DNA from: an uncultured Acidobacteriota bacterium
Lineage (GTDB): Bacteria > Acidobacteriota > Thermoanaerobaculia > Multivoradales > DATKCC01
Assembly: GCA_963741925.1 (NCBI GenBank)
Contig: CAVUJU010000005.1
Coordinates: forward strand, 2,625,447 to 2,689,446
Length of the DNA: 64,000 nucleotides
Direction of reading: 5' to 3'
Shown here: piece after piece, positions 10,777 through 41,519 of the stretch
Position numbering within the stretch: the first letter of the stretch is position 1
How the letters are laid out: every line of letters begins with the position of its first letter
Position numbers and translations under genes: made by a program
The notes under the pieces: model-generated
What the model was told of the DNA's origin: nothing
Seen by the model: only the letters and a program-made list of their open reading frames with translations
Database searches by the model: none

Positions 10777-13434
10777 TCACACCTGGACGTGCTCGAGCTC
10801 GTGGAGAAGGGCCCCGGCGTCGGCGTAGCGCTCGGCGGGGTCCTTCGCCAGGCAGCGCAGCAGGATCCCCTCGAGCTCGGAGGGAATCTCGGCCCATCGC
10901 TGCCGGGGCGGTACGGGCTCGTCGTGCAGGTGCTGGGAGATCGTCTCCAGGACCGTGCCGCCGCGGTACGGGCTCTCGGTGGTGAAGATCTCGTAGAGGA
11001 CGATGCCGCACGAGTAGACGTCGCTGCGCGCATCCACATCGCCCTCGCCGAACCGCTCCGGCGCCATGTAGCGCGGGGTCCCGATGACTTGCCCGGTCCT
11101 GGTCAGCCCGGAACCCGAGACGGCCACCGGGCGGGCGAGGCCGAAGTCGGTCAGCTTGGCGTTGCCGGCGGCGTCGAGCAGGACGTTCTCCGGCTTGACG
11201 TCGCGGTGGATCACGGCGAGCCGGTGGGCGGCGGCGAGACCCGAGCAGAGCTGCCGGGACAGCGACAGGCCGGCGGTGAACGGCAGCCGCTCGTCGGCGC
11301 GGTCCAGGAGCCCCCGGAGCGTCACCCCCCGGACGTACTCCATCGAGACGAAGGGCACGCCGTCGAGCTCGCCGAAGTCGTAGGTGCGCAGGACGTGGGG
11401 GTGGGTGACGCGCCGGGCCAGCTTCAGCTCCTCCTTGAGCCGCGCCAGGAACTCGGGGTCGTTCCAGAACTGCTGGCGGAGCACCTTGAGCGCGACCCGC
11501 TCGCCGAGCTCGCGGTCGCGCGCCCGGAACACGACGCCGACGCCGCCCGACCCGAGGATGGCCTCGATCTCGAAGCGTCCTCCCAGGACCGTTCCGACCG
11601 CGAGGCCGGTGAGCCCCACCGGGCGCGCCGCGTCGCCGTCCGCCAGCACGATCGTCCGCTTCGCCCAGGGTCCGGTGGCGAGGCGCTCGGCCTGGTCCGG
11701 GTCGAGGGCGAAGAGCTTCCGGTTGCCGAAAAGCGACGCCTGCGGCCGGAGGACCACGCCGAGCGAGGCCAGGGTCTCCCGGAGGGGACGGACCGCTTCC
11801 TCGGAGAGCAGCACCTCGCCCGGGGCGGCCTCGCGCAGCAGGGCCTCGATCTCGCGGACCGGCAGGCCGATGACCGTGGGGCCCGAGCCCCCCTCCCAGG
11901 CGAGCTCCCCCCGGACGATCCGTCCCGCGGCGATCGCCACCGTCGGGCGGAGGCTCCCGGCGCTTCCGGCCGGCCCGCCGGAGTCGGCGAGGGCCCCCAG
12001 GGTCTCGCCGGCGGTGGCCAGGGCACGATCCGCCGCCCCCTCGCCTTCGAAGGTGAGGTAGAGACGGTGGCCCGCGACCGACTCGACGCGCCCCCCCCGT
12101 TCGCCGGCGAGGCGTCCGATGCGGGCCACGTCCCGGCCGAGCGCCTGGATCGACGCCGCCGCGTCCGCAAACGGTGCCGCGTAGGCCAGGAGCTCCACCG
12201 CCACGAGGGTCGCGTCGGCCCGTTGCGCTCGGCGCGCCGGACGCGGGGGCTCGTCCTCCGGCACGGTCAGGGCGAGCTGTCCCATGTAGAGCTCGATGTC
12301 CCGTTTCTGCCGCAGGTCCGACAGCAAGTCGTCGAAGGCGGAGGCGAGCCGCGCCACCTCGTCGCGACCGCCGGTGGCCACCACCTGGTCGTAGTCGCCC
12401 TGGCGCGCCGCCTCGGCCGCCCGCAGGAGCGAGCGCACCGGGCGGAGCGCGCGGCGGGCGAGGGGATAGGAGAGCGCCAGCGCGATGAGGATCGAGGCGA
12501 CCCCACCCCCTACGAGCAGCCACTGGAGCTCGCGGAAGGTCGCGAGCTGCTCGGCCAGGGAGGTGAGGGTCACCGCGCCGCCGACCGGCCGGCCGGCGGC
12601 GTCGAGGAGCGGGCTCGCGCGGGCGAGCCAGGGTTTCCCACCCAGCTCGATCCTCCGCTCCCCGTCGCCCAGGCCGCCGGTGAACACCCGTCCGGCGCCG
12701 CCGGCCGCCTGCTCGAGCCGGGAGGCGAGCGGCGCGACGAGCGCCGGCGCGACCGAGGCGCCGACCGGCCGGAGGTGGCCGCCCGAGAGCTCGAAGAAGA
12801 CCACCTCGCCCCGGCTCACGTCCTGGACCCGCCGGGCGAGAGCGTCGTCGATGCGGTAGCCGGTCACCAGGAAGCCGTTGAGCTCGCCGCCGCGGCTCGC
12901 CGGGACGATCACGGCGTCGAAGAGCCGGTCGCCCTCGCGCCAGACCCCCGAGCCGCCGAAGTCCGAGAGCCCGGCCGCGACCAGCGGCCGCGAGGCCAGG
13001 TCCTCGCCCACCGCCTCGGGCCGGTCGGTGTGGGCCAGCACCCGGCCCTGGGGCGTGAGGACCATGGCGAAGTCGAAGCCCAGGTCCTTCTGGTTCTGCT
13101 TCATCAGGTCCAGGATCGACGCCGTGTCCTCGCTCCGGCCGGCCTCGGCGACGTAGGCGGACAGGTAGGGGTCGAGACCGAACAGGTTCGAGATCAGCGA
13201 GAGCCGCCGATAGCGCTCGTCGCGGAACGCTTTCTGGAGATTCGAGGTCCGGACCAGCTCGGCCGTCGCGTCGGCCCTGGCGATCCGCAGCCCCACCCAG
13301 GCGGTGACCGCGACCGCCAGCGCCACGGCGAAGAGGATCAGCAGCCCGGTCGCCAGGAAGATCCGGGTGGCGAGCGAGGCCCGCGAGCGCCCGGCCGGGG
13401 CCCGGCGGCCGCCGAGCGGAGGATCAGTGACCAT
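10777..13434 (-). CDS. Membrane sensor protein: periplasmic domain, TM, HAMP, degenerate class III nucleotidyl-cyclase-like domain, C-terminal Ser/Thr protein kinase
   Basis: Two TM segments flank a ~250-aa periplasmic region. HAMP-like segment (RPVRSLLRAAEAARQGDYDQVV...DDLLSDLRQK). Cyclase-homology blocks are present but the metal-binding Asp positions are changed (ATLVAVELLAY; GGRVESVAGHRLYLTFEG; TVAIAAGRIVRGEL). Complete Hanks kinase: LGSGGVGVVFRA, VALKVL, HRDVKPENVLL, DFG, GTPRYMAPE. Start taken at MVTDPP (13434); an alternative upstream start is at 13533. Confidence 0.75.
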   Translation of the reverse strand: MVTDPPLGGRRAPAGRSRASLATRIFLATGLLILFAVALAVAVTAWVGLRIARADATAELVRTSNLQKAFRDERYRRLSLISNLFGLDPYLSAYVAEAGRSEDTASILDLMKQNQKDLGFDFAMVLTPQGRVLAHTDRPEAVGEDLASRPLVAAGLSDFGGSGVWREGDRLFDAVIVPASRGGELNGFLVTGYRIDDALARRVQDVSRGEVVFFELSGGHLRPVGASVAPALVAPLASRLEQAAGGAGRVFTGGLGDGERRIELGGKPWLARASPLLDAAGRPVGGAVTLTSLAEQLATFRELQWLLVGGGVASILIALALSYPLARRALRPVRSLLRAAEAARQGDYDQVVATGGRDEVARLASAFDDLLSDLRQKRDIELYMGQLALTVPEDEPPRPARRAQRADATLVAVELLAYAAPFADAAASIQALGRDVARIGRLAGERGGRVESVAGHRLYLTFEGEGAADRALATAGETLGALADSGGPAGSAGSLRPTVAIAAGRIVRGELAWEGGSGPTVIGLPVREIEALLREAAPGEVLLSEEAVRPLRETLASLGVVLRPQASLFGNRKLFALDPDQAERLATGPWAKRTIVLADGDAARPVGLTGLAVGTVLGGRFEIEAILGSGGVGVVFRARDRELGERVALKVLRQQFWNDPEFLARLKEELKLARRVTHPHVLRTYDFGELDGVPFVSMEYVRGVTLRGLLDRADERLPFTAGLSLSRQLCSGLAAAHRLAVIHRDVKPENVLLDAAGNAKLTDFGLARPVAVSGSGLTRTGQVIGTPRYMAPERFGEGDVDARSDVYSCGIVLYEIFTTESPYRGGTVLETISQHLHDEPVPPRQRWAEIPSELEGILLRCLAKDPAERYADAGALLHELEHVQV

Positions 13435-14101
13435 CGTAGCCGCCCCGTCCGAGCCGCCGGTAGGCGCGCCCGAACTTGTCGAGATGGGGCGGGATCTTCG
13501 GCTTGGTGAGCTCGAGGAGCACCTCGGGCGCACCGCTCGAGGGCACCGGGACCGGACCGCTCCAGGGCTCCGCCTGCTCGTGCCAGACGGTCAGCGTCCC
13601 CGGGCCCTCGGGAAGCCCGCTCAGCCGGAACCGCCCCTGGTCGTCGGGAGACGTGAAGAAGGGGGTGTCGAGGACCAGGACGTAGCCCACCATGCCGTGG
13701 TGGACGTTGCAGAAGACGCGCACGACCCCGGGCCGGTCGAAGGTCACCGACCTGGCCTCGCCCCGGCCGTAGAGCCCGAGGTCGAAGCGGTAGGGGTCCG
13801 AGATCGAGAAGATGTTGTGGAGGATCGGGTCGCGGTTGGGGAAGGAGACCGTGGTCCCCGTCACCACCGCCAGGATCCGGGGCTCGAAGGACTTGTCGCG
13901 GGTCGCCATGCGCGGCGCCTCGGCGGGCGCGTGGAGCGCCACCGGGCGGTCGGGCCGCCAGGAGACGACCGCCCGGCCCGCCTCCCCGGGGACCGTGCGG
14001 CCGTGGGAGACCACCTCGACCCGGCCGGCGAGCTCGGCCGCGCCGGCGGCGGCGGGCAGCAGGGCGAGGCAGAGGGCGGCGGCCGGAACCCGAGCGGTCA
14101 T
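13424..14101 (-). CDS. Secreted cupredoxin-like (type-1 copper site) protein with C-terminal beta-sandwich
   Basis: Signal peptide MTARVPAAALCLALLPAAAGA. Candidate Cu ligand pattern H...C-x2-H-x2-M (HNIFS ... CNVHHGM). Overlaps the downstream kinase start by 11 nt, implying an operon. Confidence 0.6.
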   Translation of the reverse strand: MTARVPAAALCLALLPAAAGAAELAGRVEVVSHGRTVPGEAGRAVVSWRPDRPVALHAPAEAPRMATRDKSFEPRILAVVTGTTVSFPNRDPILHNIFSISDPYRFDLGLYGRGEARSVTFDRPGVVRVFCNVHHGMVGYVLVLDTPFFTSPDDQGRFRLSGLPEGPGTLTVWHEQAEPWSGPVPVPSSGAPEVLLELTKPKIPPHLDKFGRAYRRLGRGGYDGH

Positions 14102-16698: not shown

Positions 16699-18490
16699 AT
16701 GGGCCATGACAACGAGGAGATCGTGAAGCGCGCGCAAATGCGGATTCTGCAGGGCGTCGGCGTCTCGGGCGGCATCGCCATCGGCCGAGCCGTGGTGGTC
16801 GAGACGCGGGCTCTGGAGGTTTACAGGATCCCGCTCGCCGACGCCGACGTGGAGCCGGAGATCGAGCGCTTCGCCGAGGCGGTGGAGCAGGCCCGGGCGG
16901 AGGTGGCGCGCACCCGGCAGCGGGCCGGCGAGGACCTGGGCGAGCACACGGGGGCGATCTTCGACGCCCACCTCCTGGTGCTCTGCGACACCGGCTTCCT
17001 CGATCGCGTCACCGAGCGGATCCGCCAGGAGCGGGTCAACGCCGAGTGGGCCGTCTACCGTGCCGCCGAGGAGTACGCCGGACGCTTCGCGGCGATGGAG
17101 AACGAGTACATCCGCGAGCGCCGCATCGACATCGAGGACGTGGTCCACCACCTGCTGCGCCGCCTCCAGGGGATCTCTCACCACGAGCTGTCCGAGATCG
17201 AGGGGCCGATGGTGATCGTCGCCGACGACCTGACGCCGTCGGAGGCGGTCCGGCTGGGGCGGGGCCGGGCGGTCGGCTTCGCCATCGAGAGCGGGGGCCG
17301 CACCTCCCACACCACGATCATCGCTCGCTCGCTCGGGCTGCCGGCGGTCACCGGTCTGGGCGAGGTCACCGAGCTCGTCACCGACGAGGACCCGGTGATC
17401 ATCGACGGGCAGGAGGGGGTGGTGATCCTGCACCCGACCCGCTCGACGCTCAAGCGCTACCGGCACCGGCTCGCCGAGATGGAGAGTCGCGAGATCAGCC
17501 TCCTCGAGACCCGGGAAGCTCGAGGCGCGGACCGCGGACGGTGACGCCATCCAGCTCATGGCCAACATCGACCTGCCCGAGGAGCTCGAGGACGTCCTCG
17601 CCTTCGGCGCCCGCGGGATCGGCCTCTACCGCAGCGAGTTCCTGTACATCGAGAGGAGCCCGGAGCTGCCCAGCGAGGAGGAGCACCTGGCCCTCTATCG
17701 GCACCTGGTCGAGGCCGCCGCCCCCGAGCCGGTGATCATCCGGACCTACGACCTCGGCGGGCGCAAGCTCGCCCAGGAGCTGCTCGAGACCCACGAGGAC
17801 AACCCGGTGCTCGGCCTGCGCGGCATCCGGCTGACCCTGGCGCGGCCGCAGGTGTTCAAGGCCCAGATCCGGGCCCTCCTGCGCGCCGGCCTCTACGGCG
17901 ATCTGCGGCTCATGCTGCCCCTGATCTCGGGGCTCGACGAGGTCCGGGCCTTCCGCGCCTTCGCCGCCGAGGTCATGGCGGAGCTCGAGGCCGAGGGCCT
18001 CGAGTACCGGCGGGACCTGCCCCTGGGGGTCATGATCGAGGTGCCCTCGGCGGCGGTCATCGCGGACGTCCTGGCCCGCGAGGTGGACTTCTTCTCCATC
18101 GGCACCAACGACTTGATCCAGTACTCCCTGGCGGTCGACCGCAACAACGAGCACGTCGCCGACCTCTACCAGCCGGCGCATCCGGCGATCCTGCGCATGC
18201 TACGCTTCGTGATCTGCAGCGCGGCGGAGGCCGGGATCGAGGTGGGGCTGTGCGGCGAGATGGCCGCCGACCCCCGCTATGCGGCGCTCCTGATCGGCCT
18301 CGGGCTGCGCCGCTTGTCGGTGACGCCGCGGTCGGTCCCGGCGCTCAAGCAGCGGATCCGGGGGCTGGCGGCGGAGGCCCTCGCCGAGCTCGCGGAGCGC
18401 TGCCTGGAGCTCGGCACCGCCGCCGAGGTGGAGGACCTCCTGGACTCGGCGCTCGACCCCATGGTCGAGACCGCCGCGAGGCGGGCATAG
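16699..18490 (+). CDS. ptsI: Phosphoenolpyruvate-protein phosphotransferase (Enzyme I), apparent frameshift near 17512-17518
   Basis: N-terminal half 16699-17544 holds the phospho-His domain (GGRTSHTTIIARSLGLP). The C-terminal PEP-utilising half 17558-18490 (GIGLYRSEFLY...IGTNDLIQY...CGEMAADP) is in a different frame. The junction lies in a ccgggaag homopolymer context. Confidence 0.85.
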
Positions 18491-24908: not shown

Positions 24909-26246
24909 GTGACGGCCAGGACGAGAGACGAGACCCCGGCGCGAGTGGGGCGAGCCCCTAACCCCGGCGGAGAGGTCCGGTCCCGATGGGGCTGGGCCGA
25001 ACCCTCGGTCTGGACGGAGCGCATGCTGCGGGCCCTGGAGACCGGGGTCCGAGGAGGGACGTGGTTCAGCCTGATCGACAAGGTCTGCCGGAAGCAGACG
25101 CTTCTGCGCGCGTTCGAGAGAGTCGAGCGCAACGGGGGCGCCGCGGGGGTAGATCACGTCACCGTGGATCACTACGGATCGCGCCTGGAGGAAGAGGTGG
25201 AGACGCTGTCGGCGTCCTTGCGGGACGGTAGCTACCGCCCGCAGGCGGTGCGTCGGCGGTGGATCCCCAAGCCGGGAAGCCGCGAGAAGCGGCCCCTGGG
25301 GATTCCGACGGTGCGCGATCGGGTGGTGCAGGGCGCGTTGCGCTTGGTCCTGGAGCCGATCTTCGAGCGGGATTTCGCCGAGCACAGCTACGGCTTCCGC
25401 CCGGGGCGCGGGTGCCGGGAAGCGCTGGAGCGGGTCGAGGAGCTCCTCGACTCGGGCCACACCTGGGTGGTGGACGCCGACCTGCGCCGGTACTTCGACA
25501 CGATCGATCCGGAGCGCCTGCTGGCGCGGGTGCGCGAGAAGGTATCGGACGGGCGAGTGCTCGCCCTGGTCGAGTCCTTTCTCGAGCAAGAGGTACTGGA
25601 CGGACTGGAGAGCTGGACGCCCGAGCGGGGAACCCCGCAAGGCGCGGTGATCAGCCCCCTACTGGCCAACATCTACCTCGACCCGCTGGACCATCTTCTG
25701 GCCCGCGAGGGCTTCGAGATGGTGCGCTACGCCGACGACTTCGTGATCCTGTGTCGGAGCGAGACCGAGGCCCGCCGGGCGCTTGCCCTGGTGGAGGCGT
25801 GGACGGCCCAGGAGGGCCTGAGCCTTCACCCGGACAAGACGGCGGTGGTGGATACCACCGAGCGGGGTGGCTTCGACTTCCTGGGGTACCACTTCGAACG
25901 GGGCTACCAATGGCCCCGCGACAAGAGCCTCCGGAAGCTCAAGGACACCCTGCGCCGCAAGACCCGGCGCACCAACGGTCACAGCCTCGATCGGATCACC
26001 TGGGACGTCAGCCGGACGTTGCGTGGTTGGTACGAGTACTACCGCTACAGCCACCCGACGACCTTCCGGCCGCTCGACCGGTGGATCCGCATGCGCCTGC
26101 GCAGCATCTTACGCAAGCGTCGCCGAGGCCGAGGCCGGGGCCGCGGTCGCGACCACCAGCGCTGGCCCAACGCCTTCTTCGCCGAGCATGGGCTGTTCAG
26201 CCTCGAAACCGCCTATGCCTCGGACCCGCAGTCCTCTCGTAGGTGA
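24909..26246 (+). CDS. Group II intron-encoded reverse transcriptase/maturase (no endonuclease domain)
   Basis: 445 aa. RT blocks include RIPKPGSREKRPLGIPTVRDRVVQ, FRPGRG and the YADD motif (MVRYADDFVILC). The X/thumb domain is followed by an Arg-rich tail. No HNH motif. Confidence 0.9.
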   Translation: MTARTRDETPARVGRAPNPGGEVRSRWGWAEPSVWTERMLRALETGVRGGTWFSLIDKVCRKQTLLRAFERVERNGGAAGVDHVTVDHYGSRLEEEVETLSASLRDGSYRPQAVRRRWIPKPGSREKRPLGIPTVRDRVVQGALRLVLEPIFERDFAEHSYGFRPGRGCREALERVEELLDSGHTWVVDADLRRYFDTIDPERLLARVREKVSDGRVLALVESFLEQEVLDGLESWTPERGTPQGAVISPLLANIYLDPLDHLLAREGFEMVRYADDFVILCRSETEARRALALVEAWTAQEGLSLHPDKTAVVDTTERGGFDFLGYHFERGYQWPRDKSLRKLKDTLRRKTRRTNGHSLDRITWDVSRTLRGWYEYYRYSHPTTFRPLDRWIRMRLRSILRKRRRGRGRGRGRDHQRWPNAFFAEHGLFSLETAYASDPQSSRR

Positions 26247-30024: not shown

Positions 30025-30558
30025 TCACCGGCCGTCGTGCCCGAGCTCACGCCCCAGGGCCGCCAGGCAGCGGCCGAGGATCTTGCGGATGCTCGCGGGC
30101 TGGTAGGCCGTCCGCGAGGCGATCTCCGCCGGCTTCATCCCGAGCCCGAAGCGCAGCCGCAGCACCGCGCGGTGCCGCTCCGGGAGACGGGCGAGCGCCG
30201 CGGCGAGGTCGCGCCGGAGGTCCCCCAGCTCCTGGCCCGGGGGGACCGGCTCGGCGAGGCGATCGAGGAGGTCGTCGTCGATCGAGTCCCACGGTCGGCT
30301 ACGCCGCCGCCGCCAGTAGCGCAGGCTCTGGTTGCGCAGGGTCCCCAGGATCCAGGCCTCGGGGTGCCGGACCTCCCGGTACTTCGTGAAGAGCACGAGC
30401 AGGGCCTGCTGCAGGAGGTCGTCGCCGTCCTGCGGCGGAATCCGGTACCTGTGGAGGAGGGCGACGGCTCGGGGCCGGATGCGCTCCACGACGCCCTGGA
30501 AGCACACCTCGAGCTCCCTGCGATCGTCATCTTCCGCGAGGACTCGGGCCGCACTCAC
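30025..30558 (-). CDS. ECF-type RNA polymerase sigma factor (paralogue 1 of 3)
   Basis: 177 aa. Sigma-70 region 2 (IPPQDGDDLLQQALLVLFTKY...DPEAWILGTLRNQ) and region 4 (ERHRAVLRLRFGLGMKPAEIA). Confidence 0.8.
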   Translation of the reverse strand: MSAARVLAEDDDRRELEVCFQGVVERIRPRAVALLHRYRIPPQDGDDLLQQALLVLFTKYREVRHPEAWILGTLRNQSLRYWRRRRSRPWDSIDDDLLDRLAEPVPPGQELGDLRRDLAAALARLPERHRAVLRLRFGLGMKPAEIASRTAYQPASIRKILGRCLAALGRELGHDGR

Positions 30559-30597
30559 GCAATCACGATAGCAGCCGGTGCTCCGGCGTGTCTACTG

Positions 30598-30751
30598 ACC
30601 AGTCAACCGTCAAGTGACAGGGTATCTGGCGAGGATTTCTCGTCGCTGGCCAGGCGCTCCGACGCAGGCGTAGCGGTGCCTACGTCGAGGAGGAGCAACG
30701 CCGCAAGCGGCGAGAGGGACCGCCAGGGCACGTCACTTGACGGTTGACGGG
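30598..30751. repeat. Second copy of the 20-bp-arm inverted repeat element, carrying a nested ~90-bp insertion of repeat family B; lies upstream of ECF sigma paralogue 1
   Basis: Arms gaccagtcaaccgtcaagtgac / gtcacttgacggttgacggg. The inner segment gcgctccgacgcaggcgtagcggtgcctacgtcgaggaggagcaacgcc matches the copies at 15541-15605 and 42590-42665. Confidence 0.7.
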
Positions 30752-30801
30752 TCACTACTCTGATGACGTAATTTATTCTCTGAATCGGGAGAAAGGTCGC
30801 C

Positions 30802-31341
30802 CTACAGCTCGGCGAGAAAGTCCTCTCGCCGGAGCCCCGCCGCCTTGAGCTCGCGCCCGAGGAGCACCAGGCTTTGCGTCGTCAGCTTGCGCATGCCCGT
30901 CGACTCGTAGCCGAGCTCCTCCGCGATCTCCGAGCTCTTGTGGCCGAGGCCGTAGCGCAGGCGCAGCAGGTCCTGGCACCGGCGGGGCAGCCTCGAGATG
31001 GCGGCGTTCAGGTCGTGACGCAGGTCGGCCTGCTCCTGGGGAGGCGACTGCGGCCCGGCGAGCACGTCGAGGATGGCGTCGTCGACCGCCTCGTAGATCG
31101 CCTCGTCCTGCTGGCGCCAGTAGAGCTTGCACCGGTTGCGCAGGGTCGAGAACAACCAGGCCTCCGGGTCGCGCACGCTCTCCCACTTGAAGACCAGCGC
31201 CACCAGAGTCTCCTGGAGGAGGTCCTCGGCATCCTCGCGCGGGATCTGGAAGCGCGCGAGCTCGCGCAGCAGGCGTGGATGTTGCTGGAGGAGGAAGGCG
31301 TCGGCCGGCCGCTCGGCCGCTTTCGGATGGAGGCGGTTCAT
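30802..31341 (-). CDS. ECF-type RNA polymerase sigma factor (paralogue 2 of 3)
   Basis: Start chosen at MNRLHP (AAGG RBS 6 nt upstream). Carries IPREDAEDLLQETLVALVFKW...DPEAWLFSTLRNRC...CQDLLRLRYGLGHKSSEIA. Confidence 0.75.
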   Translation of the reverse strand: MNRLHPKAAERPADAFLLQQHPRLLRELARFQIPREDAEDLLQETLVALVFKWESVRDPEAWLFSTLRNRCKLYWRQQDEAIYEAVDDAILDVLAGPQSPPQEQADLRHDLNAAISRLPRRCQDLLRLRYGLGHKSSEIAEELGYESTGMRKLTTQSLVLLGRELKAAGLRREDFLAEL

Positions 31342-31527
31342 CCTTTCGCCCCGCTGGAGAGCAAGCTCCATCCTACCACCTCGAGCGCGTCCGGGTGTCT
31401 CGAACCCGGGGTCGGGGGTCGGTCCGGGCGGCATCTCGCCGCTCGGCGCATCAGCGCCGGCGCCCAGGGGCCGTACGACCTCCGCCTCGATGGAACCGCG
31501 GAGTCGCACAGGATCGCCGCTTCCGCC

Positions 31528-32070
31528 TCAGGTCTCCTCCGGCTCCTTGAAGAAGCCGGAGGCGGTGAGCTGCCGCGTCAAGGCGGCGAGACACCGACTG
31601 GTGATCTTGCGGATGCTCGACGCCTGGTAGCCCATCCGCTCGGCGACCTCGGCAGGCTTGTAGCCGAGGCCGTAGCGCAAGCGCAGGAGAGAGCGGCAAC
31701 GCTCCGGGAGCTCGGCGATCGCCCGCTCCAGGTCGGCCTGGACATCCTGCTGCACCTGGGGCGTGCCACCCGGCTTGGCGACGAGCTCCAGGATGGTGGT
31801 GTCGACCGAGTCGTAGAGGCGCGAGCGCTTGCTGCGCCAGTACATGAGACACCGGTTGCGCAGGGTGGCCACCAGCCAGGCCTCGGGATCCCGGATCTTC
31901 TTGCGCTTGTAGATCAGGGTGAGGACCGCCTCCTGGAGGACGTCCTCCGAGTCTTCCGGCGGGATTTGGTAGCGGTAGAGAATCCGCTCCAACCGACGCT
32001 GGAGGGTGCCGAGCAGCTCTTCGAGCGACCAGTCGCTCTGTGTGTCGAGGTTCTGCTGCGTTGGATTCAT
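31528..32070 (-). CDS. ECF-type RNA polymerase sigma factor (paralogue 3 of 3)
   Basis: 180 aa. IPPEDSEDVLQEAVLTLIYKR...DPEAWLVATLRNRC...CRSLLRLRYGLGYKPAEVA. Confidence 0.8.
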   Translation of the reverse strand: MNPTQQNLDTQSDWSLEELLGTLQRRLERILYRYQIPPEDSEDVLQEAVLTLIYKRKKIRDPEAWLVATLRNRCLMYWRSKRSRLYDSVDTTILELVAKPGGTPQVQQDVQADLERAIAELPERCRSLLRLRYGLGYKPAEVAERMGYQASSIRKITSRCLAALTRQLTASGFFKEPEET

Positions 32071-32111: not shown

Positions 32112-33677
32112 CTACTCATTCCCGGTCATTCCCGGCGGCTCCGGAAGCAGCGGCTGCCCCGCCGAATGCCGACACGGGGCCGCCGACCCGGTCCAACTCG
32201 AGCTCGCGTCCGTCGGGGAGGTAGAAGGTGCCCGAGAGATAGACCGCGGGGCTCTCGCTCTGCGGCCTGAGCTCCACCTCCCCACCGCCGATGAGCTCTC
32301 CGCCTTCGACCATCGGCGTGTAGAGCCGGACCTCGTCCGGCTGGCGCCAACCCAGGCCCGCCCGAACCTCCTGACCGTCGCGCCACAGAGAGTAGCGGGA
32401 GAACCCGCCCGGCTCGACACGGTCGAAGTACCCGCCCTTCGCGCGCAGCCGCAGGAAGTTCCCGTCGGTCCCCGCGATGTCGGTACTCTGTTGGTTCGAG
32501 GCCTCAGCTCGAAGCCCAGGATGACCCGGTCGCTCTGCCGGGACTTTACCACGAGGCGGCCGGCGAGCGCGGGCGACGGCGGCGAGTCGCCCAGGACTGC
32601 GGCCAGCTCGCCGGCCGCGAGCGACAGCGCCTCCTCGGGCGCCGCCAGGCGGTAGAACAGGAGGCCGAGGTAGTGGCTCGCGGCCGCGTCCCGGATCCGC
32701 TCGACGATCTGGTGGACCACGCCCGGGGCGGTCTGCACCACCCGGACCGCCTCGCCGGGGGCGAGCCGCCAGCCGCCCGCCCGGGAGGCCCTCTGCGCCT
32801 GGAAGGTGTGGACCACCCGGCCGACGCCGGCGAACGGGTCGCCGATGGCGAGCCGCAGGCCGGGGTCGGTGACCAGCGGCTTGAGCCGCGCCCGCGTGGT
32901 CGTCTCCCGTGGCTCGGCGGCGGCGGACAGGTGGGTGGCCGAGCCCAGCACCACCGCCTCCACGAGGAAGTCCCGGCCCAAGGCCTCGAGGCGGTGGACG
33001 TCGGAGACCACCGTCTCCGGGTCCCAGGCCTCCGGAAGGTCGGCGGCTCCCGGCTCCTGGCCGTAGATCTCGGCCGCCAGGAAGTCGACCGCGCGGGCGA
33101 GGTCCGGGGCCTCCGGCGCGCGGAGCCACTGGCGGTGCAGCGTCGCCGAGACCCGGCTCTCGCGGCCGACCGCCGGGCGCAGGGCGGCGAGCAGGCGGGC
33201 GTAGGCCGCGAGGCCGCCGCCGGGCGGCGGCTCGAGGTCGAGGTGGACGCCGAGGGGCAGCAGGCGAGCGGCCTCGGCCGCGGCGAAGAGCCGCCGGAGA
33301 TCCGCCGCCAGGGCCGCGGAGGCGGCCCCCGGGTCGACGCCCTTGGCCGCCGGGCCCGGGCCGCGCAGGACCAGGGTGACCGGGCTGCCCGGAGGAACGG
33401 CGCGGAAGACGTCGGACGCCGCCTCGATCCGCGGGGTGCCTCCCGCCCAGCTCACCCGACCCGTCTCGAGGAAGATCTCCTCCACTCCGGCGGCGGCCAG
33501 GGTGCGAGCGTCCGCGGGCTCGAGGCGCGCCGCCTCCGGCGCCACCCAGACCGCCGAGCCGGCGGGCCGGCTCGGCCGCCCCCGTCCGGGTCCGCCGCAG
33601 GCCGCGGCGAGCCCCGCCGCCAGGAGCAGAAGCGCCAGGGCGGAGCGGGCGGGCGGGGACCTCCGGAAGCCGCTCAC
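32112..33677 (-). CDS. Lipoprotein of unknown function, apparent frameshift near 32478-32486
   Basis: Lipobox LLAAGLAAAC. The body reads cleanly in one frame to ...RVILGFELR. The C-terminus (...ASNQQSTDIAGTDGNFLRLRAKGGYFDRVEPGG...SGAAGNDRE) is in the frame of ORF 32116..33129. The junction is in an agg/cc run. Confidence 0.55.
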   Translation of the reverse strand: MSGFRRSPPARSALALLLLAAGLAAACGGPGRGRPSRPAGSAVWVAPEAARLEPADARTLAAAGVEEIFLETGRVSWAGGTPRIEAASDVFRAVPPGSPVTLVLRGPGPAAKGVDPGAASAALAADLRRLFAAAEAARLLPLGVHLDLEPPPGGGLAAYARLLAALRPAVGRESRVSATLHRQWLRAPEAPDLARAVDFLAAEIYGQEPGAADLPEAWDPETVVSDVHRLEALGRDFLVEAVVLGSATHLSAAAEPRETTTRARLKPLVTDPGLRLAIGDPFAGVGRVVHTFQAQRASRAGGWRLAPGEAVRVVQTAPGVVHQIVERIRDAAASHYLGLLFYRLAAPEEALSLAAGELAAVLGDSPPSPALAGRLVVKSRQSDRVILGFELRPRTNRVPTSRGPTGTSCGCARRAGTSTVSSRAGSPATLCGATVRRFGRAWVGASRTRSGSTRRWSKAESSSAVGRWSSGRRARAPRSISRAPSTSPTDASSSWTGSAAPCRHSAGQPLLPEPPGMTGNE

Positions 33678-36600
33678 ACCGGGATTCTAATGGTCACCGC
33701 GAGGCCGCCGCCAGGACGGTTGCGGGCGGCGATGGTCCCGCCGTGCTCCTCGGCGATGCGCCGGGCGATGGGCAGGCCGAGCCCGGTCCCGGTGTCGTAG
33801 GTCGAGAAGTAGGGGTCGAAGATCCTGCCCAGGAGGTCGGGCTCGACCCCCGGGCCCGCGTCGAGCACCGCCACGCTCGCCGTGCCGTCGGCGCTCGCCA
33901 CCCGCACGGCGACCCGCCCCTTGCCGGCGTTGGCCCGGACCGCGTTCTCCACCAGGTTGCGCACCGCGCGGCCGAGAAGCCGGGCGTCGAAGCGGGCGGG
34001 AACCTCCGGCTCGGCCGCCTCCAGGCTCACCTCGGCCCCCACCGCGCCCGAGCTGCGGTACGCCTCCACCAGGTGCTCCATCGCCGCCACCAGGTCCCCG
34101 GGCTGGAGGTCGATCTTGGGGATCGAGCTGAAGGTCGAGAACTCCGAGGCGATCTGGCGCAGCTCCTCGACCTGGCGCAGGATGTTCGTGGTGCAACGCT
34201 CGAAGACCTCGTCGAAGCCCTCGCCGTGGTTGCGATGGACCTCGCGCATGTGCTCGGTCGACAGGCGCAGAGGGGTGAGCGGGTTCTTGATCTCGTGGGC
34301 GATGATCCGCGCCATCTCGGCCCAGGCCTGCAGCCGCTGGCCGCGCAGGACCTCCGTGGCGTCCTCTACCACCAGCAGGGCCGTCGGCTCGCCCTCGCCG
34401 GGGACCGGCACCCAGACCAGGCTCCACTCCCGCTCCTCGCCGCCGTCCTGCGGCGCCAAGCGCACCGTGGTCCGGCGGATCCGGTGGCCGGCCTCGGCCA
34501 GGAAGCCGGCGACCGGCGCCAGGCGCTCGGAGCCCGCGAGCGCGTCGTCGACCCGCTCCCCCACCCCGACCCCGAGGAGCTCGCGGGCCACCCGGTTGTG
34601 CATCAGGACGCGCCGTTGCCGGTCGAGGGAGATCACCCCGGAGGTGATGTTTTCGACCATCCGCTCGACCACCTGCTTCTCGCGCACCAGGCGTGAGCGG
34701 CTCTCGGCGATCCGCCCGGCCATCTCGTCCACCGCCTCGACCAGGGCCGCGAGCTCGAGCTCGGACGGGGCGAGCTCGAGGGAGGTGGCGCCCGAGGCGA
34801 TCCGCCGGGTCCCCTCCACCAGCTCCTCGATCGGCCGGCTGAAGCGGCGGGCGAGGACCACGCCGACCGCGATCAGCAGCCCGAAGAGGGCCGCCGAGGC
34901 CAGGATCACGCGCCGCCTCAGGGAGGCGAGCTCGTGGGCCACCTCCTCCTGCTGGGCGAGGAGCGGCATCGAGAGGAAGAGCCGCTCGGTGTCGGCCGGC
35001 GCCCCGGGGATGCGCAGCGGCGCGTAGAGCTCCAGGTAGTCCACGTCGCGCGCCACGTTGGTTCGCGAGCCGCCGCCGTAGCCGAGCAGCGTGAGGCGGG
35101 AGTAGATCTCCCCCGGGATGCGCTCGGGCAGGAGCCCGGCGGCGAAGAGCTCGGGCTTGCTCGAGGCCCAGATCGAGCTCCCCCAGTAGAGGTTCACCTC
35201 GTGGTGGACCACCCGGGAGACCCACATCAGGAGCTGGTCGTCGACCAGGGTGGTGAAGTCGAACCCCGGCTCGAGGGTCGCCACGTAGTCCCCGATCACC
35301 CGCTGGGTCGAGGCGAGCGCCGCCTCGCCCGCCGAGCGCTGCTCCCGGTTCAGCCGCTCCTCGGCGTCGGACAGGATCACCAGGTTGAGGAGCAGGAGGG
35401 GAACGAGGAGGAGCCCGGTGACGACGATGACCAGCCGCTTCGAGTACGAGCGCAACGTGCGCCGGGCGGCGTCCCGGAACGCCGGCCGGGGCAGGGCGAA
35501 GAGCAGGAGCAGCCCGGCCGCCGCCAGCAGCGCCGCGAGGTTGCCCACGGCGTGGCTGCCCACCCGTTCCAGGGCCTGAACCGGCAGCAGGAGCGGCAGG
35601 TAGACGACCTCGATGCCGTCGGGTCCGTGGTGGGCCCAGGCCCACGCCGAGCCGACCGGCGTCTCGACCCGGGCGCGGCCACCGTGGCCGGCGGCGAGGC
35701 CGGCGAGCCCGGTGGGAAGGGGCGGCCCTTCCGGCCATGGCGAGACGAGCGCCCTCCCCTGCTCCGTGTAGAGGCCGTACGCCGCCACCTCCGGTAGCCC
35801 CTGGATCCGGCGGTCCGCCACCGAGCGCCCGCGCAGCAGCCCGAGCTCGATGGCGTCGAACGAGGCCCGGCGCCCCAGATCGAACCCCGGACGCGGCAGG
35901 AGCCAGTAGCGCGCGACCGCCCACGGCCGGCCGGCGTAGGAGAGCACCGCGTGGCCCGAGATCAGGGTGTCCTCCCAGACCGGCAGACGGAGGTCTTCCC
36001 AGCGGCCGAGGGCTGGCGGCGAGGACTCGGAGCCGGTCACCAGGGGGCCGAACGAGAAGGTCGACGAGCTTCCCGGAGAAGGGCTCCACCACCAGGGCGG
36101 AGAGGGTGTTGGGCTGGGCCAGGGGCGAGCGCCGCCAGAGGGCGAACGCCAGGTCCTCCCGTCCGAGCCCGTTCGGATTCCGGGGTACCAGGGTCGCGAG
36201 ATCGAGGTCCTGGAAGTGCGCCTCCAGCTCGCTCCCGACCCGCGCGCGCGCGGCCGGCGGCGGAGGCGCCAGCTCGCTCTGGCAGGTCGCGCCGAGCTCC
36301 TGCTTGAGCTCGGCGCGGTACGCCGTCTCCCAGGCCCCCGCTGCGAGGAGCGCGGCGAGCAGGAGGGCGACCGCGCCCGGCAACGGGTGGCGCAGGCGCC
36401 GGTCGCTCACCCAGCGCGCCGCCGCCGCGCCGCCCACCGCCAGGAGCCCGAGGCCGGCCGGGACCAGGTCGTGGACGGCGCCCGCCGCCACCAGGCACCC
36501 GACGGCAGCCCACGCCCACGCGTCGGTCGCCGGCCGGCGGGGCGCGCCCGCCTCGCGCAGGCGGCGGCCGGCGGTCCGCCCGGCGAGGAGCAGCAAGGCC

Positions 36601-37877
36601 AGGGCGAGGGCCGCGAAGGCGGCCCGCAGGGTCATCGCTCCCGGGCCCAGCCACAGCGAGGCCGCGAGGTCGAGGCTCGGAGTGGAGGCTCCCGCCTCAC
36701 CCGGCACCGGCAGGCCGAGACCGAAGCCGTGGATGGTGAGCCAGGCGGCCGCCGCCACCAGCAGGGCCGCCGGAGCTCCCAGCGCCGCCGCGATCCAGCC
36801 CCGGCGGCCGGCGGGCTCCAGGGCCGCCGCCGCCGCGGCCAGGACGATCCCCGCCGCCAGGGCTCCGGCGGCAAACGGAGTCGCCCCGCTCGCGAGGGCC
36901 GCCGCCCCCGCCGCCGCCGCGCCCAGCAGGCCGATCGCCGCCCCGGCCTGCCGGCCCGCCAGCTCCGCCGGACGAGTGCCGGGCAGGGCCAGGCGCAGCC
37001 CCCGGATCACGGTCACGGCCACGAGCAGCAGCGCGAGGCAGCCCCACGCGACCCGGCGCGGCCACCGGCGGACCGGGCCCGGCACCCCGGGCGGATCGGC
37101 GCTCGGCCGGAGCACCACCAGCGACGGCAGCCCCGGAACCTCGACGGCGACCGCCCCGGGGGCGCTGGCCACGCCGGCCGGTGCCAGCGACCATCGGACG
37201 CCGTAGCGCCCCGGCGCCAGGGCCAGGCCGGCCGGCGCCTCGAACGGCCAGCGATCGGTGGCGTAGCTGCGGCCCGCGACCAGCCGCCAGGGACGGCGGG
37301 CGTCGTCGAGCGGCTGGATCGCCACCAGGGTCACCGCCCCGAAGCTGGCGTAGAAGTCCCGGCCGGAGCGGGCGAGCTCCGAGGGCTCGGGCTCGTTGAG
37401 CAGGCCCTCGCCGGCCCAGGCGACGGCCTCGCCGTCGGGGTCGACCAGCAGCAGCGTGGGCCGGGACGAGGCCCCCTCGCGCGCCTGTCCCACGATCTCG
37501 GCGAGGCGCCGGAAGGCTTCGAGGCGGTAGGCGTCGTCGTTCGAGGGCGCCGGAAGAGCCGCCGCCGCCTGCTTCGCCTCGGCCGTCAGGCCCTGCCAGA
37601 GGGCGGCGTAGCGGGTGGCCACCTCCGGCGGCAGGTCGGTGGCCGCCGGCAGGACGTCCAGGCGGTCGGCGGCCCAGGGCAGGACGAGGGCGCCGGCGGC
37701 GAGGACGAGCAGGGCGGTGGCGAGCCAGCGCCCCCGGCGCACCGCGGAGAGCGCCAGCCAGCCCGCCCCGAGGACGGCGACGGCGAGGGCGGACCAGGGG
37801 GCCGGCAGCAGCGGCGCAGCGGGAGAGGCCGCCAGGAGGACCGTCCCGATCCAGAGCCGCTGGTCAGTCCAGCGCAT
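33674..37877 (-). CDS. NtrY-like sensor histidine kinase with ~600-aa N-terminal multi-TM/sensor extension (single gene split by a homopolymer frameshift at ~36043)
   Basis: N-terminal part 37877-36045 (MRWTDQRLWIG...) has many Ala/Leu-rich TM segments. The C-terminal part (ORF 33674..36040) has TM, HAMP, PAS-like, HisKA (IAHEIKNPLTPLRLSTEHM) and HATPase_c (GTGLGLPIARRIAEEHGG) domains. The frames differ by one base in a cggCCCCCtgg run. Confidence 0.7.
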
Positions 37878-37889
37878 GGCCTTCGCGCC

Positions 37890-39557
<1,668 letters not shown>

Positions 39558-39612
39558 GGCTCGATGATACAGCTCGCCGCAGCACGAGCGAATCCACGGC
39601 TCGGCCCGGGGC

Positions 39613-41439
39613 CTACCCGGTGAGCGCGTGCTTCTCCATCTTGGCGGCCAGGGTGTTGCGGGAAATCCCCAGCAGGCGCGCCGCCCGCGACTTGTTGCCG
39701 CCGGTCCGGCGCAGCGCCTCGAGGATCGCCGACTGCTCCGCCCCCGCCACCAGCCGGTCGAGCTCCAGGTCCGATCCCGGCTCGACCCGGGAGGCGGCGT
39801 GGAGCGGGCTCGCCTTGACCGCCTCGGGCAGGAGGTTCAAGTCCACCGGCCGGCCGTGCGGGCAGAGATAGACCATCTGGCGCGCGATGTTCTCCAGCTC
39901 GGCCATGTTGCCGGGGTAGTCGTAGGCGAGCAGCGCGGTCATCGCCTTGGTGGTGATGCCCGCCACCCGCTTGCCGGTCTCGTGGCAGAACCGGTTGATG
40001 TACGACTGGACGAGCAGCGGCAGGTCCGCCTTCCTCTGGCGCAGGGGCGGCACGTCGATGACGAAGCGCGAGAGGCGGTAGGCCAGATCGACCCGGAACT
40101 CGTCCCGGGCGACCGCCGGCTCGAGCGGCCGGTGAGAGGCGGCGACCAGGCGCACGTCGACCCGCGTCACCTCGCGGCTGCCCGCCGGCTCGACCTCGCC
40201 GGAGCGCAGGAAGCGGACGAGGCGCGCCTGGAGCTCCAGGGGCAGCCGGTCGACCTCGTCGAGGAACAGGGTGCCGCCGCCGGCGAGGAGGAGCTTGCCC
40301 TCGCGCTTGACCGGCCCGCCCTTGGTCGCGACCTCCGAGCCGAACAGGTCGGCCTCGACCTGGGTCGCGTTCGCTCCCGAGCCGAGGGCGGTGATGAACG
40401 GGCCGTTGCGCCCCGGGCTCGAGAGGTGGATCGAGCGGGCGAGGAGCTCGCGCCCGACGCCCGGTTCGCCGCGCAGCAAGACGTGGACCCCCGTGTCCAC
40501 CGCCACCCGCAGCCGCGCGAGGACCTCCTTCATCGCCTCCGACTCCCCCACCACCAGCCGCGGGTCGAGGGTGAGGTCCTGGACCCCGCGGTTGCCCGGC
40601 AGGATCGGCTCGTACCGGCCCACGTGGTGGACCAGCCCGAGCGACAGGAGGTCGCCCAGGGCGAAGAGCGCCCCCTCCGGCGACCACGCCGCGGGATCGA
40701 AGCGGCGCAGGACGACGATCATGAAGTACGGGCGGTCGAGAGCGCTGAACACCCGGTAGAAGGTCCAGGCGGGCTCGCCCGCGAGGCGGCCCGCGAAGAA
40801 CAGGCTCCGGGCCTCCCCGTCCCCGGCCTCGTGGCGGCGCTCCTTGATCGCTTCGAGCAGGGCGTCGCCGCTCGCCAGCCAGTCCGGGTCGGTGGCGCTC
40901 GCGAACTTGATCCCGGCGCTTTCGAGGTCGCCGAGGAAGAGGAAGAGCGCCCCGCCGCCGAAATCGGCGAGCACGCGCTCCATCAGGGACTCGAGGGTGG
41001 TCCGGCTCTCCGCGTCGGCGAGGACCCAGTTGCTGATCCGGGCCAGGTGTTCGAGCATCAGCGCCGCCGTCATCACCGGCGGGCCGGCCTCCGAAGCCGC
41101 TGGCTCGGGCTCCTCCGGCGCCGGCCCGGCCTCGGCCTCGGGCGCCATGTCCTCGACCAGCAGGGTGACGCCGCCCATGCGCACCTCGTCCAGGAGCTCG
41201 AGGTCGGCCTCCTTGACCCGCCGTCCGTCCACCAGGAGGCCCCGGCGGCTCCCCAGGTCTTCGACGCGGAGCACCCGGCCGTCGTAGGTCAGGCGGGCGT
41301 GGCGCTGGGCGACGCCGGTGTACGGCAGCACGATGTCGCACTCGGCCTGGCTGCCGATCACCAGCTCGCGCCGGTGGATCGGGAAACGGCGGACCCCGTC
41401 CGGGGCGTAGGCGACGAGGCGGAGCACGGCCGCTAGCAA
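39613..41439 (-). CDS. FHA-domain transcriptional regulator of the sigma-54 activator (bEBP) family with degenerate ATPase motifs
   Basis: N-terminal FHA ([27 protein letters not shown]), central AAA+ sigma-54-interaction-like domain and a C-terminal Fis-type HTH ([18 protein letters not shown]). Walker A is GEPGVGRE (Lys to Arg). The GAFTGA loop is replaced by VATKGG. Confidence 0.8.
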
Positions 41440-41519
41440 CCCTCCGGACAGGTGTAGAGCTCGCTCGTCTCCGCCTTCATGAGGTGGGCAGTATAGTTTG
41501 CTATTCTCCCGCCGCCATG

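Follow-up and report, generated by a model that had tools for sequence, protein, structure and literature searches.

A regulator gene, referred to here as REG, in a 64,000-nucleotide stretch of the uncultured Acidobacteriota contig CAVUJU010000005.1 (the window) probably encodes an atypical enhancer-binding protein (EBP), which has kept the scaffold of bacterial enhancer-binding proteins (bEBPs) and is predicted to work independently of both sigma-54 and ATP hydrolysis. We favored this interpretation because the GAFTGA motif and the sensor II arginine were lost across the whole REG family and the Walker residues decayed repeatedly on a conserved scaffold. The same losses strengthened an earlier proposal, made from the letters of the DNA alone (the sequence-only reading), that REG probably has no ATPase activity and does not act as a sigma-54 activator.

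The G+C content of the window is ~72%, so that spurious long open reading frames (ORFs) are common, and coding frames were picked by third-position GC (GC3). By this frame check and the ORF list of the window, the REG ORF was present as described at 39613-41439 on the minus strand, with a GC3 of 0.97. Its true start is most likely the GTG at 41427 rather than 41439, because the resulting 604-aa product is 100% identical to the database protein P0001 and the N-termini of orthologues agree with this start. Pfam matched FHA at aa 27-89, Sigma54_activat at aa 297-461, AAA_lid_14, and HTH_8 at aa 568-603, which bore out the layout first read in the gene, namely that of a sigma-54 activator with a sensory part, an AAA+ domain and a Fis-type helix-turn-helix (HTH) domain. 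The closest solved structure to the AAA+ domain was ZraR (1ojl, E 3.5e-62). As a whole, REG scored below every NCBIfam equivalog cut-off, with PrdR the best match (232 bits vs 795), and TyrR (137 vs 576) and NtrX (187 vs 600) likewise below.

Translation and alignment to ZraR showed that the two motif changes noticed at first, GEPGVGRE at Walker A and VATKGG in place of GAFTGA, were both correct. The Walker A motif GDSGTGKE of ZraR aligned to GEPGVGRE in REG, and the ZraR stretch opposite the REG L1 loop was LFGHEKGAFTGAD (within the longer stretch LFGHEKGAFTGADKRREG). The arginine-finger motif FRVDLAYRL was intact in REG and conserved across the family. In a family table comprising the query and its 120 best homologues (n = 121), no member had GAFTGA; the L1 consensus was E[VI][PA]GKG[GA]PVRREGK, with Gly or Thr at the Phe position of GAFTGA and Lys at the Thr position. 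The sensor II Arg was likewise absent from all 121 members, while it was present in all eight outgroup proteins and retained in P0122 and P0124, two deeper relatives outside the 121. Walker B DE was replaced in ~30 of the 121 proteins (by DD, DH, DG, DS, DA, ND and similar pairs). The Walker A Lys, on the other hand, was kept in ~109, and the 12 proteins with Arg all fell within a subclade at least 69% identical to the query. The Lys-to-Arg change is real: Arg is also found in independent assemblies at 76–91% identity, which excludes a sequencing error. It belongs to this subclade and is not a trait of the REG family. Thus, of the two losses read in the window, that of GAFTGA was conserved among orthologues but the Lys-to-Arg change was not.

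Compared with sigma-54-dependent bEBPs, REG has a PF00158-type AAA+ domain with arginine fingers, and a sigma-54 gene is present in the genome, but it lacks GAFTGA, the full catalytic set (Arg, DE and Ala in the window) and a -24/-12 target promoter. The structural features of an atypical EBP were present: the scaffold of an EBP with a preserved HTH but no sigma-54 contact loop.

We searched about 5.8 billion proteins for homologues and compared about 270 relatives. The search yielded hundreds of full-length homologues at 64–91% identity, and those with a source name were labelled Thermoanaerobaculia, Acidobacteriota or 'bacterium'; orthologues at 90–91% identity were full-length and came from independent assemblies. 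Deeper members at 43–59% identity, with wrecked Walker A (GETGTGAR, GEDGCEFA, GEAGTARE) and Walker B (LQAA, IFGV, LVGV) motifs, were added when 1.8 billion cluster representatives were searched exhaustively with HMMER. On a neighbor-joining tree rooted with the eight outgroup proteins, all of them canonical, the Walker A Lys must have changed no fewer than seven times by Fitch parsimony and Walker B DE no fewer than 14 times. The rest of the AAA+ scaffold, the invariant linker after the middle domain and the HTH were strongly conserved, and long invariant stretches occurred in all four domains among the hundreds of full-length homologues. The scaffold appears to be still under selection, because the remaining AAA+ sequence, the arginine-finger motif and the HTH were so well conserved. 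A decay of this kind would be expected had ATP hydrolysis become dispensable at the origin of the REG clade with the fold still selected.

The nearest relatives of the family have intact ATPase motifs. Among the 150 best representatives, 116 had the same four-domain order, 34–42% identity over the full length, and GVATGV in L1 (this family is included among the relatives labelled P0138-P0270). The examples listed, including all eight outgroups, had an intact Walker A (GKE), Walker B (DE) and sensor II Arg. Nearly all GVATGV proteins also kept the FHA Ser and Asn, and the FHA Arg position was Ser in 85 of the 116. One of them, P0139 (locus L082, 4617-9845), directly follows a 1119-aa Ser/Thr kinase with TPR repeats. 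From this, the REG family appears to be a degenerate branch of a large uncharacterized FHA-EBP family, some members of which are paired with Ser/Thr kinases. A literature search found no paper on the REG family or on FHA combined with GAFTGA; GVATGV was mentioned for a single protein, Desulfovibrio vulgaris DVUA0100, for which activity at sigma-54 promoters is still predicted (PMC4641369).

The N-terminal domain of REG has an FHA fold without the canonical residues that read phospho-Thr. The FHA model matched with E 2e-12 (PF00498), and the YscD-type FHA model matched slightly better. An AlphaFold2 model of aa 1-291 (pLDDT 83.5) superposed on the FHA domain of GarA in Foldseek with a TM-score of 0.92 and a root-mean-square deviation of 1.3 Å. 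The phospho-Thr-binding residues of FHA domains are typified by Arg70, Ser85 and Asn107 of Rad53 FHA1. In an alignment to FhaA and GarA, the corresponding contacts of REG changed from IGR to IGS, from SRRH to AQRH and from STNG to SRRG. Across the family, the Arg was Ser in all 121 members, the Ser was Ala in 112 and the Asn was Lys or Arg in 119, while the structural His was invariant. The beta-sandwich of an FHA domain was thus found, whereas its conserved phospho-Thr contacts (the Arg of GR, the Ser of SxxH and the Asn of NG) were not. Canonical phospho-Thr reading by this domain is not supported by the alignments, and of the FHA phospho-Thr reader that had been proposed in place of a receiver domain, the fold stood but the canonical reader did not. 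Where the canonical residues were lost, Arg-Arg or Arg-Lys was gained in the beta6-beta7 loop, which may form a remodelled basic pocket.

The gene for a Ser/Thr kinase, suggested as a nearby partner of the FHA domain, is indeed encoded in the window, 26 kb from REG. However, in a neighborhood survey of 80 related genomic loci, no Ser/Thr kinase was found within 10 kb of REG in any of them; only the outgroup L082 has one. A functional link between REG and this kinase was rejected on that ground, and a role of the kinase in feeding the FHA domain is not supported.

The middle domain (aa 116-274) had no match in Pfam or in sequence searches of the PDB. A fold search with aa 1-291 was dominated by the FHA domain, and the middle domain was therefore modelled separately. 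Modelled alone with AlphaFold2, it reached a pLDDT of 92.6 with the order alpha-alpha-beta-beta-alpha-beta-beta-beta-alpha. Foldseek gave weak matches (E > 1e-3) to GAF-, PAS- and LuxR-ligand-domain-like folds, the best (TM-score 0.58) being to the GAF domain of the Aquifex aeolicus bEBP Nlh1 (4g3k) and to the ligand-binding domains of TraR/CepR2. From these weak matches, we consider the domain to be GAF-like.

The gene neighborhood indicates that REG is probably linked to histidine utilization (hut) genes and to a giant histidine kinase. The gene read as hutU downstream on the same strand scored 909 bits against TIGR01228 (cut-off 375), which made it a urocanate hydratase equivalog, and it fell below the cut-offs for thiourocanate hydratase. 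In the 80 loci, hemE was divergent from REG in 60, and less than 200 bp away in 33 of these. REG lay directly before hutU in 11 of 63 informative loci, and the kinase came directly after REG, without hutU, in two. A relative at 46% identity had the order hutH-REG-hutU-kinase-glutaminyl cyclase with gaps of no more than 20 bp, and at 50–51% identity REG and the kinase were adjacent in otherwise different surroundings; REG-kinase adjacency was seen in L081, L086, L066 and L078. In 18 loci, including relatives at 75–78% identity in which hutH encodes 500 aa, the end of hutH was immediately 5' of REG. Judged from these gene orders, hutH-REG-hutU-kinase is the ancestral order, and REG-kinase is also found on its own. 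The cluster of REG, hutU and kinase recognized at first is thus a conserved neighborhood, but REG does not head its older form.

There was no hutH match in the window. Instead, a TATACT box and an ATG are followed by a 15-codon ORF just before REG, and the close relative L052 has the same structure. The window probably lost hutH by deletion, leaving its promoter and fused ends before REG, because the start context of the short ORF resembles the hutH start of relatives and its end, PEGC*, resembles the hutH ends HLEGLG* and HLEGLA*.

The kinase gene downstream is real, but its ORF in the window is frameshifted. The 1396-aa ORF at 33687-37877 (minus strand) is out of the coding frame in its C-terminal half, and the GC3 frame plot showed a switch near 36050-36100. 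Two relatives of ~90% identity, L001 and L052, have GG where the window has GGG, and the intact gene in L001 is a single ORF of 1405 aa. Two separate genes were therefore ruled out by a one-nucleotide insertion relative to an intact gene. A hydropathy scan of the L001 orthologue gave ~10–11 transmembrane segments, and this membrane part had no Pfam match. HAMP, PAS, HisKA and HATPase_c were found in the window ORF at 33674-36040 with intact H, N, G1 and G2 boxes. The kinase had been called NtrY-like, a label that did not hold: NtrY was not among the 25 best NCBIfam families shown of 76 matched, AtoS being the best (182 bits vs a cut-off of 646), and only the generic HAMP-PAS-HisKA-HATPase order is shared with the NtrY type. 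A 521-aa protein follows the kinase in relatives down to about 30–37% identity; in L086 the kinase is followed by a 509-aa protein without a Pfam match, which may or may not be a homologue of the 521-aa protein. Just 3' of the kinase cluster, at 30025-32070 (minus strand), lie three consecutive genes for ECF (extracytoplasmic function)-type sigma factors, the first of which is conserved (84–94% identical) at the cluster end in close relatives.

This neighborhood raises the possibility that REG is a receiver-less output partner of the giant kinase, through direct binding or FHA-read phosphorylation, with the hut genes supplying or consuming the signal. We consider this unlikely, yet the strongest of the alternatives, and it overlaps with the atypical EBP interpretation. 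REG and a kinase of 1300–1400 aa stay adjacent, or separated only by hutU, down to 46–51% identity in varied surroundings. No response-regulator gene was seen in the cluster of the window, L086 or L087, the catalytic boxes of the kinase are intact, the FHA domain gained its basic pair in the beta6-beta7 loop, and CbrA/CbrB, which controls hutU in Pseudomonas, offers a loose analogue (PMC8871633). However, REG has no receiver domain, many loci have other genes between REG and the kinase or no kinase within 10 kb, L081 has a REC-GGDEF gene after the kinase, and the kinase may act on a response regulator whose gene lies elsewhere. In a more specific and less probable version, REG would be a lineage-wide pseudo-bEBP in which the phosphate pocket of the FHA domain, the sigma-54 loop and the site of ATP hydrolysis are all dead, and it would form a dedicated pair with the ~1400-aa kinase in the hut operon. 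Control of REG by the kinase would then bypass His-Asp phosphotransfer; the kinase could, for instance, dock on the remodelled FHA domain. If true, this would be an undescribed output mode of a histidine kinase and an AAA+ activator family turned into a pseudoenzyme scaffold.

The promoters of the cluster were of the sigma-70 type. A weak -24/-12-like element had been noted before hutU, and the string TGGATTCGCTCGTGC does exist there, but it is a chance-level match. TGG-N9-TGC occurred 34 times in the window versus 26 ± 5 expected; of the 11 bases that the consensus TGGCAC-N5-TTGCA specifies, the site departs from five; L001, a relative at 90% identity, does not have it; and sigma-54-like sites with up to three mismatches preceded hutU in only two of 39 loci. 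A sigma-54 promoter before hutU was rejected on account of this chance frequency, the lack of conservation and the -10 boxes found in its place. The -24/-12 spacing pattern had no match in the hemE-REG intergenic region of the window. A sigma-54-like string in that spacer, TGGGCAG..TTTGCT, has a spacing off by 1 bp, was missed by the pattern and was rejected.

In place of such elements, TAnnnT preceded the hutU start in 30 of 39 related loci (TAGAAT in 24), at a distance of 6–9 nt (6–7 nt in 27). REG orthologues have TACACT-type boxes 7–9 nt before the ATG, hutH in relatives has TATACT 7–9 nt before its start, and the TATACT of the window lies 9 nt before the ATG at 41480. By inspection, only -10 boxes were seen upstream of REG and hutH. 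As read from these boxes, the hutU, hutH and REG promoters are sigma-70-type and near-leaderless, and -10-like hexamers 6–9 nt before the starts suggest leaderless mRNAs. The TATTCT box of hemE in the window has the same near-start position, and the divergent -10 boxes of hemE and hutH/REG are 6 bp apart.

These promoters, together with the catalytic decay, lend indirect support to regulation by REG at sigma-70 promoters without ATP hydrolysis. They also bear on the possibility, which we judge very improbable, that REG is a sigma-54 activator with a non-canonical L1 loop, the Lys-to-Arg copy of the window being a weak or slow variant. Here, rpoN lies in the window as first reported, albeit frameshifted; the arginine fingers, the Walker B DE of the window and the overall similarity to PF00158 are retained; and the nearest outgroup family, with GVATGV and intact ATPase motifs, includes the predicted sigma-54 type (PMC4641369). 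Nevertheless, a shortened loop carries other residues at the Phe and Thr positions of GAFTGA, the whole family has lost the sensor II Arg, and relatives in the same gene context have repeatedly had Walker A and B destroyed, which is incompatible with an ATP-driven remodeller. The near absence of -24/-12 sites before hutU, the unmatched hemE-REG spacer and the -10 boxes at REG and hutH also argue against it.

For REG as an atypical EBP, we infer the DNA targets, the ligand, the sign of regulation and any link to the kinase as follows. REG would bind DNA through its HTH and regulate near-leaderless promoters with sigma-70-type -10 boxes, as an activator or a repressor. Its most likely targets would be the ancestral hutH-REG-hutU-kinase unit and its own gene. 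The GAF-like domain would take a small ligand, for which a metabolite of the histidine pathway such as urocanate is the obvious candidate. The non-canonical FHA domain could provide a second input through protein contact, possibly with the giant kinase, and the AAA+ domain would serve as an oligomerization and perhaps nucleotide-binding module.

Several observations weigh against this picture. The largest subclade, with Lys and DE, might hydrolyze ATP. Variant loops alone are no proof of sigma-54 independence, because DVUA0100, of the GVATGV sister family, is predicted to be a sigma-54 activator (PMC4641369). The link to hut could be inherited synteny, because hutU was distant, or hutU and the kinase were not seen, in many loci: hutU lay 0.7–9 kb from REG in 27 loci, with opposite-strand genes between them in all five examined (L008, L011, L017, L024 and L056), and neither hutU nor the kinase was seen in 16 loci whose flank extended for 9 kb or more. 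No operator was found either, and no inverted repeat was common to the intergenic regions of the different loci. A perfect palindrome, TGCAAGAAGCTTGCA, with the variants TGCAAGATCCCTGCA, was located 40–60 nt 5' of REG in at least eight loci (L010 9958-9972, L031 9945-9959, L038 9945-9959 and others), but only where the gene of an unrelated secreted FN3-like protein is the divergent upstream neighbor; it was absent from the window even at two mismatches. We set it aside as a REG site. Short similarities between the two intergenic regions of the window were dropped, as they are not conserved in L001.

Two further genes of the window are split between frames (Table 1). Region I of rpoN (MALEQKLSLRLSQKL...) lies in the ORF from 6250, and the core-binding and DNA-binding domains lie in the ORF from 6554. 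In ptsI, the PEP-utilizers N and mobile domains are in the first ORF and the PEP-binding domain is in the second, in another frame. For the kinase, an assembly indel is the likeliest explanation, because rpoN and ptsI are also split; the rpoN frameshift is probably an assembly indel as well, and ptsI is likely the third in 64 kb. Hardly credible, then, is the view that REG is a decaying gene on its way to a pseudogene with meaningless motif losses, as the Walker A change, the apparently deleted hutH and the frameshifted kinase might suggest: the REG ORF is intact with coding-type GC3, its closest orthologues in independent assemblies are full-length, hundreds of full-length homologues share invariant stretches in all four domains, and the rpoN and ptsI frameshifts point to assembly indels rather than gene decay.

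Elsewhere in the window, a reverse transcriptase/maturase gene of the group II intron type (RVT_1 and GIIM) at 24909-26246 (plus strand) lies between parAB-like genes and lptF/G, and a 1299-aa RHS-repeat protein is encoded at 47109-51008 (plus strand) in a stretch of strong negative GC skew.

Table 1. Features of the REG gene and of other genes in the 64,000-nucleotide window. Coordinates are window positions; the residue numbers given for the FHA-fold domain are those of the 608-codon ORF.
Feature	Coordinates	Strand	Description
REG coding sequence	39613..41427	-	604 aa plus stop; degenerate FHA, GAF-like, GAFTGA-less AAA+, Fis-type HTH
FHA-fold domain	41152..41388	-	aa 18-96 of the 608-codon ORF; Pfam FHA and Yop-YscD_cpl
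Middle sensory domain	40618..41094	-	aa 116-274; GAF-like alpha/beta; followed by the invariant linker (14 residues)
Sigma-54-type AAA+ domain and lid	39799..40551	-	aa 297-547; PF00158 E 4.9e-41, PF25601
Walker A GEPGVGRE	40447..40470	-	aa 324-331; P-loop Lys to Arg, codon 40450-40452
L1 loop EVATKGGP	40312..40335	-	in place of EKGAFTGA, one residue shorter (alignment to ZraR and FleQ)
Walker B TLFLDEV	40252..40272	-	DE intact in the window; DD, DH, DG, DS, DA or ND in relatives
Sensor II region	39889..39918	-	Ala for the Arg of canonical PGNxRELEN (WPGNIRELEN in ZraR)
Fis-type HTH_8	39631..39738	-	PF02954 E 1.1e-14; many columns invariant
hemE, uroporphyrinogen decarboxylase	41517..42554	+	PF01208 E 4e-124; divergent neighbor; TATTCT box 41502-41507
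Candidate hutH scar	41433..41495	-	TATACT 41490-41495, ATG at 41480, 15-codon ORF, TAG 41433
-24/-12-like string TGGATTCGCTCGTGC	39582..39596	-	judged a chance match
TATCAT -10-like box	39564..39569	-	6 nt before the hutU ATG (39557)
hutU, urocanate hydratase	37890..39557	-	555 aa; Pfam urocanase N, middle and C domains
Giant membrane histidine kinase	33674..37877	-	transmembrane part, HAMP, PAS, HisKA, HATPase_c; one extra G at 36072-36074
521-aa protein	32112..33677	-	start overlaps the kinase stop; no clear family, weak DUF3142 match
ptsI (ptsI/ptsP-like, phosphotransferase system enzyme I)	16699-17544 / 17558-18490	+	split between frames
Ser/Thr kinase, dCache-HAMP	10777-13533	-	window gene
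rpoN	6250-7720	+	split in two frames; ORFs start at 6250 and 6554; frameshift near 6540-6560

The individual domains of REG resemble those of known systems to different degrees. FHA domains of the YscD/EscD type and that of Chlamydia CT664 (3gqs) also have the beta-sandwich without the canonical Arg, and VGS in CT664 is similar to IGS in REG; however, these are components of type III secretion and not transcription factors, and CT664 retains the Ser and Asn. The GVATGV FHA-EBPs share with REG the same four domains in order and, usually, a Ser at the FHA Arg position, but their ATPase residues (GKE, DE and the sensor II Arg) and their FHA Ser and Asn are in place, features that the clade of the window has lost. 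The FHA-domain bEBPs of Myxococcus carry GAFTGA.

With CbrA/CbrB, the pair of REG and its neighboring kinase shares the combination of a very large PAS-HisKA-HATPase kinase with multiple transmembrane segments, an NtrC-family protein and histidine utilization genes (PMC8871633). CbrB differs from REG in its receiver domain, GAFTGA and use of sigma-54, and the membrane part of CbrA is an SLC5 transporter domain, whereas that of the REG-linked kinase had no Pfam match. Beyond generic domains in common, the comparison of the two pairs gave no evidence of homology.

We also compared REG with the atypical EBPs, which are a functional grouping and not one family, namely Escherichia coli TyrR, Pseudomonas putida PhhR, Rhodobacter capsulatus NtrC and HupR, Brucella abortus and Caulobacter NtrX, Caulobacter NtrC, Vibrio cholerae VpsR and Myxococcus xanthus HsfA. 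TyrR and PhhR govern genes of amino-acid metabolism, and the context of REG suggests likewise. Atypical EBPs and REG alike have the PF00158 AAA+ domain and a C-terminal HTH and have lost the sigma-54 contact loop. GAFTGA is missing from TyrR, PhhR, HupR, HsfA, NtrX and VpsR, several of which have non-consensus Walker motifs (PMC6158489); the Walker B ND of VpsR is shared by P0035 and P0036 of the REG family. Action at sigma-70 promoters has been reported for R. capsulatus NtrC and VpsR, Caulobacter NtrC appears to act there as well, and atypical EBPs act, or are thought to act, at such promoters without hydrolysis (PMC6158489; bioRxiv 10.1101/2023.06.06.543975). REG differs from them in its N-terminal modules (an FHA fold and a GAF-like domain vs REC or ACT-PAS), in the additional loss of the sensor II Arg, in the mosaic of catalytic losses within one orthologous family, and in its setting among hut genes with a giant kinase as its pair.

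Atypical EBPs are thus already known. What is new here is the architecture of a degenerate FHA domain, a GAF-like domain and a dead AAA+ domain, the stepwise decay of three functional sites across the family, and the placement between hutH and hutU, next to a giant kinase. Automated annotation names hundreds of REG homologues 'sigma 54-interacting transcriptional regulator'. The name is very probably a misnomer throughout the family, and it would inflate both the number of sigma-54 activators counted in Acidobacteriota and the sigma-54 regulons predicted there. The hutH-REG-hutU-kinase arrangement provides a concrete hypothesis for the control of histidine catabolism in a poorly studied and mostly uncultured class. 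Moreover, the REG family forms a natural series of stepwise catalytic loss with the fold, linker and HTH conserved, which should be useful for asking what an EBP ring does without ATP hydrolysis, the same question that is posed by TyrR, NtrX and VpsR.

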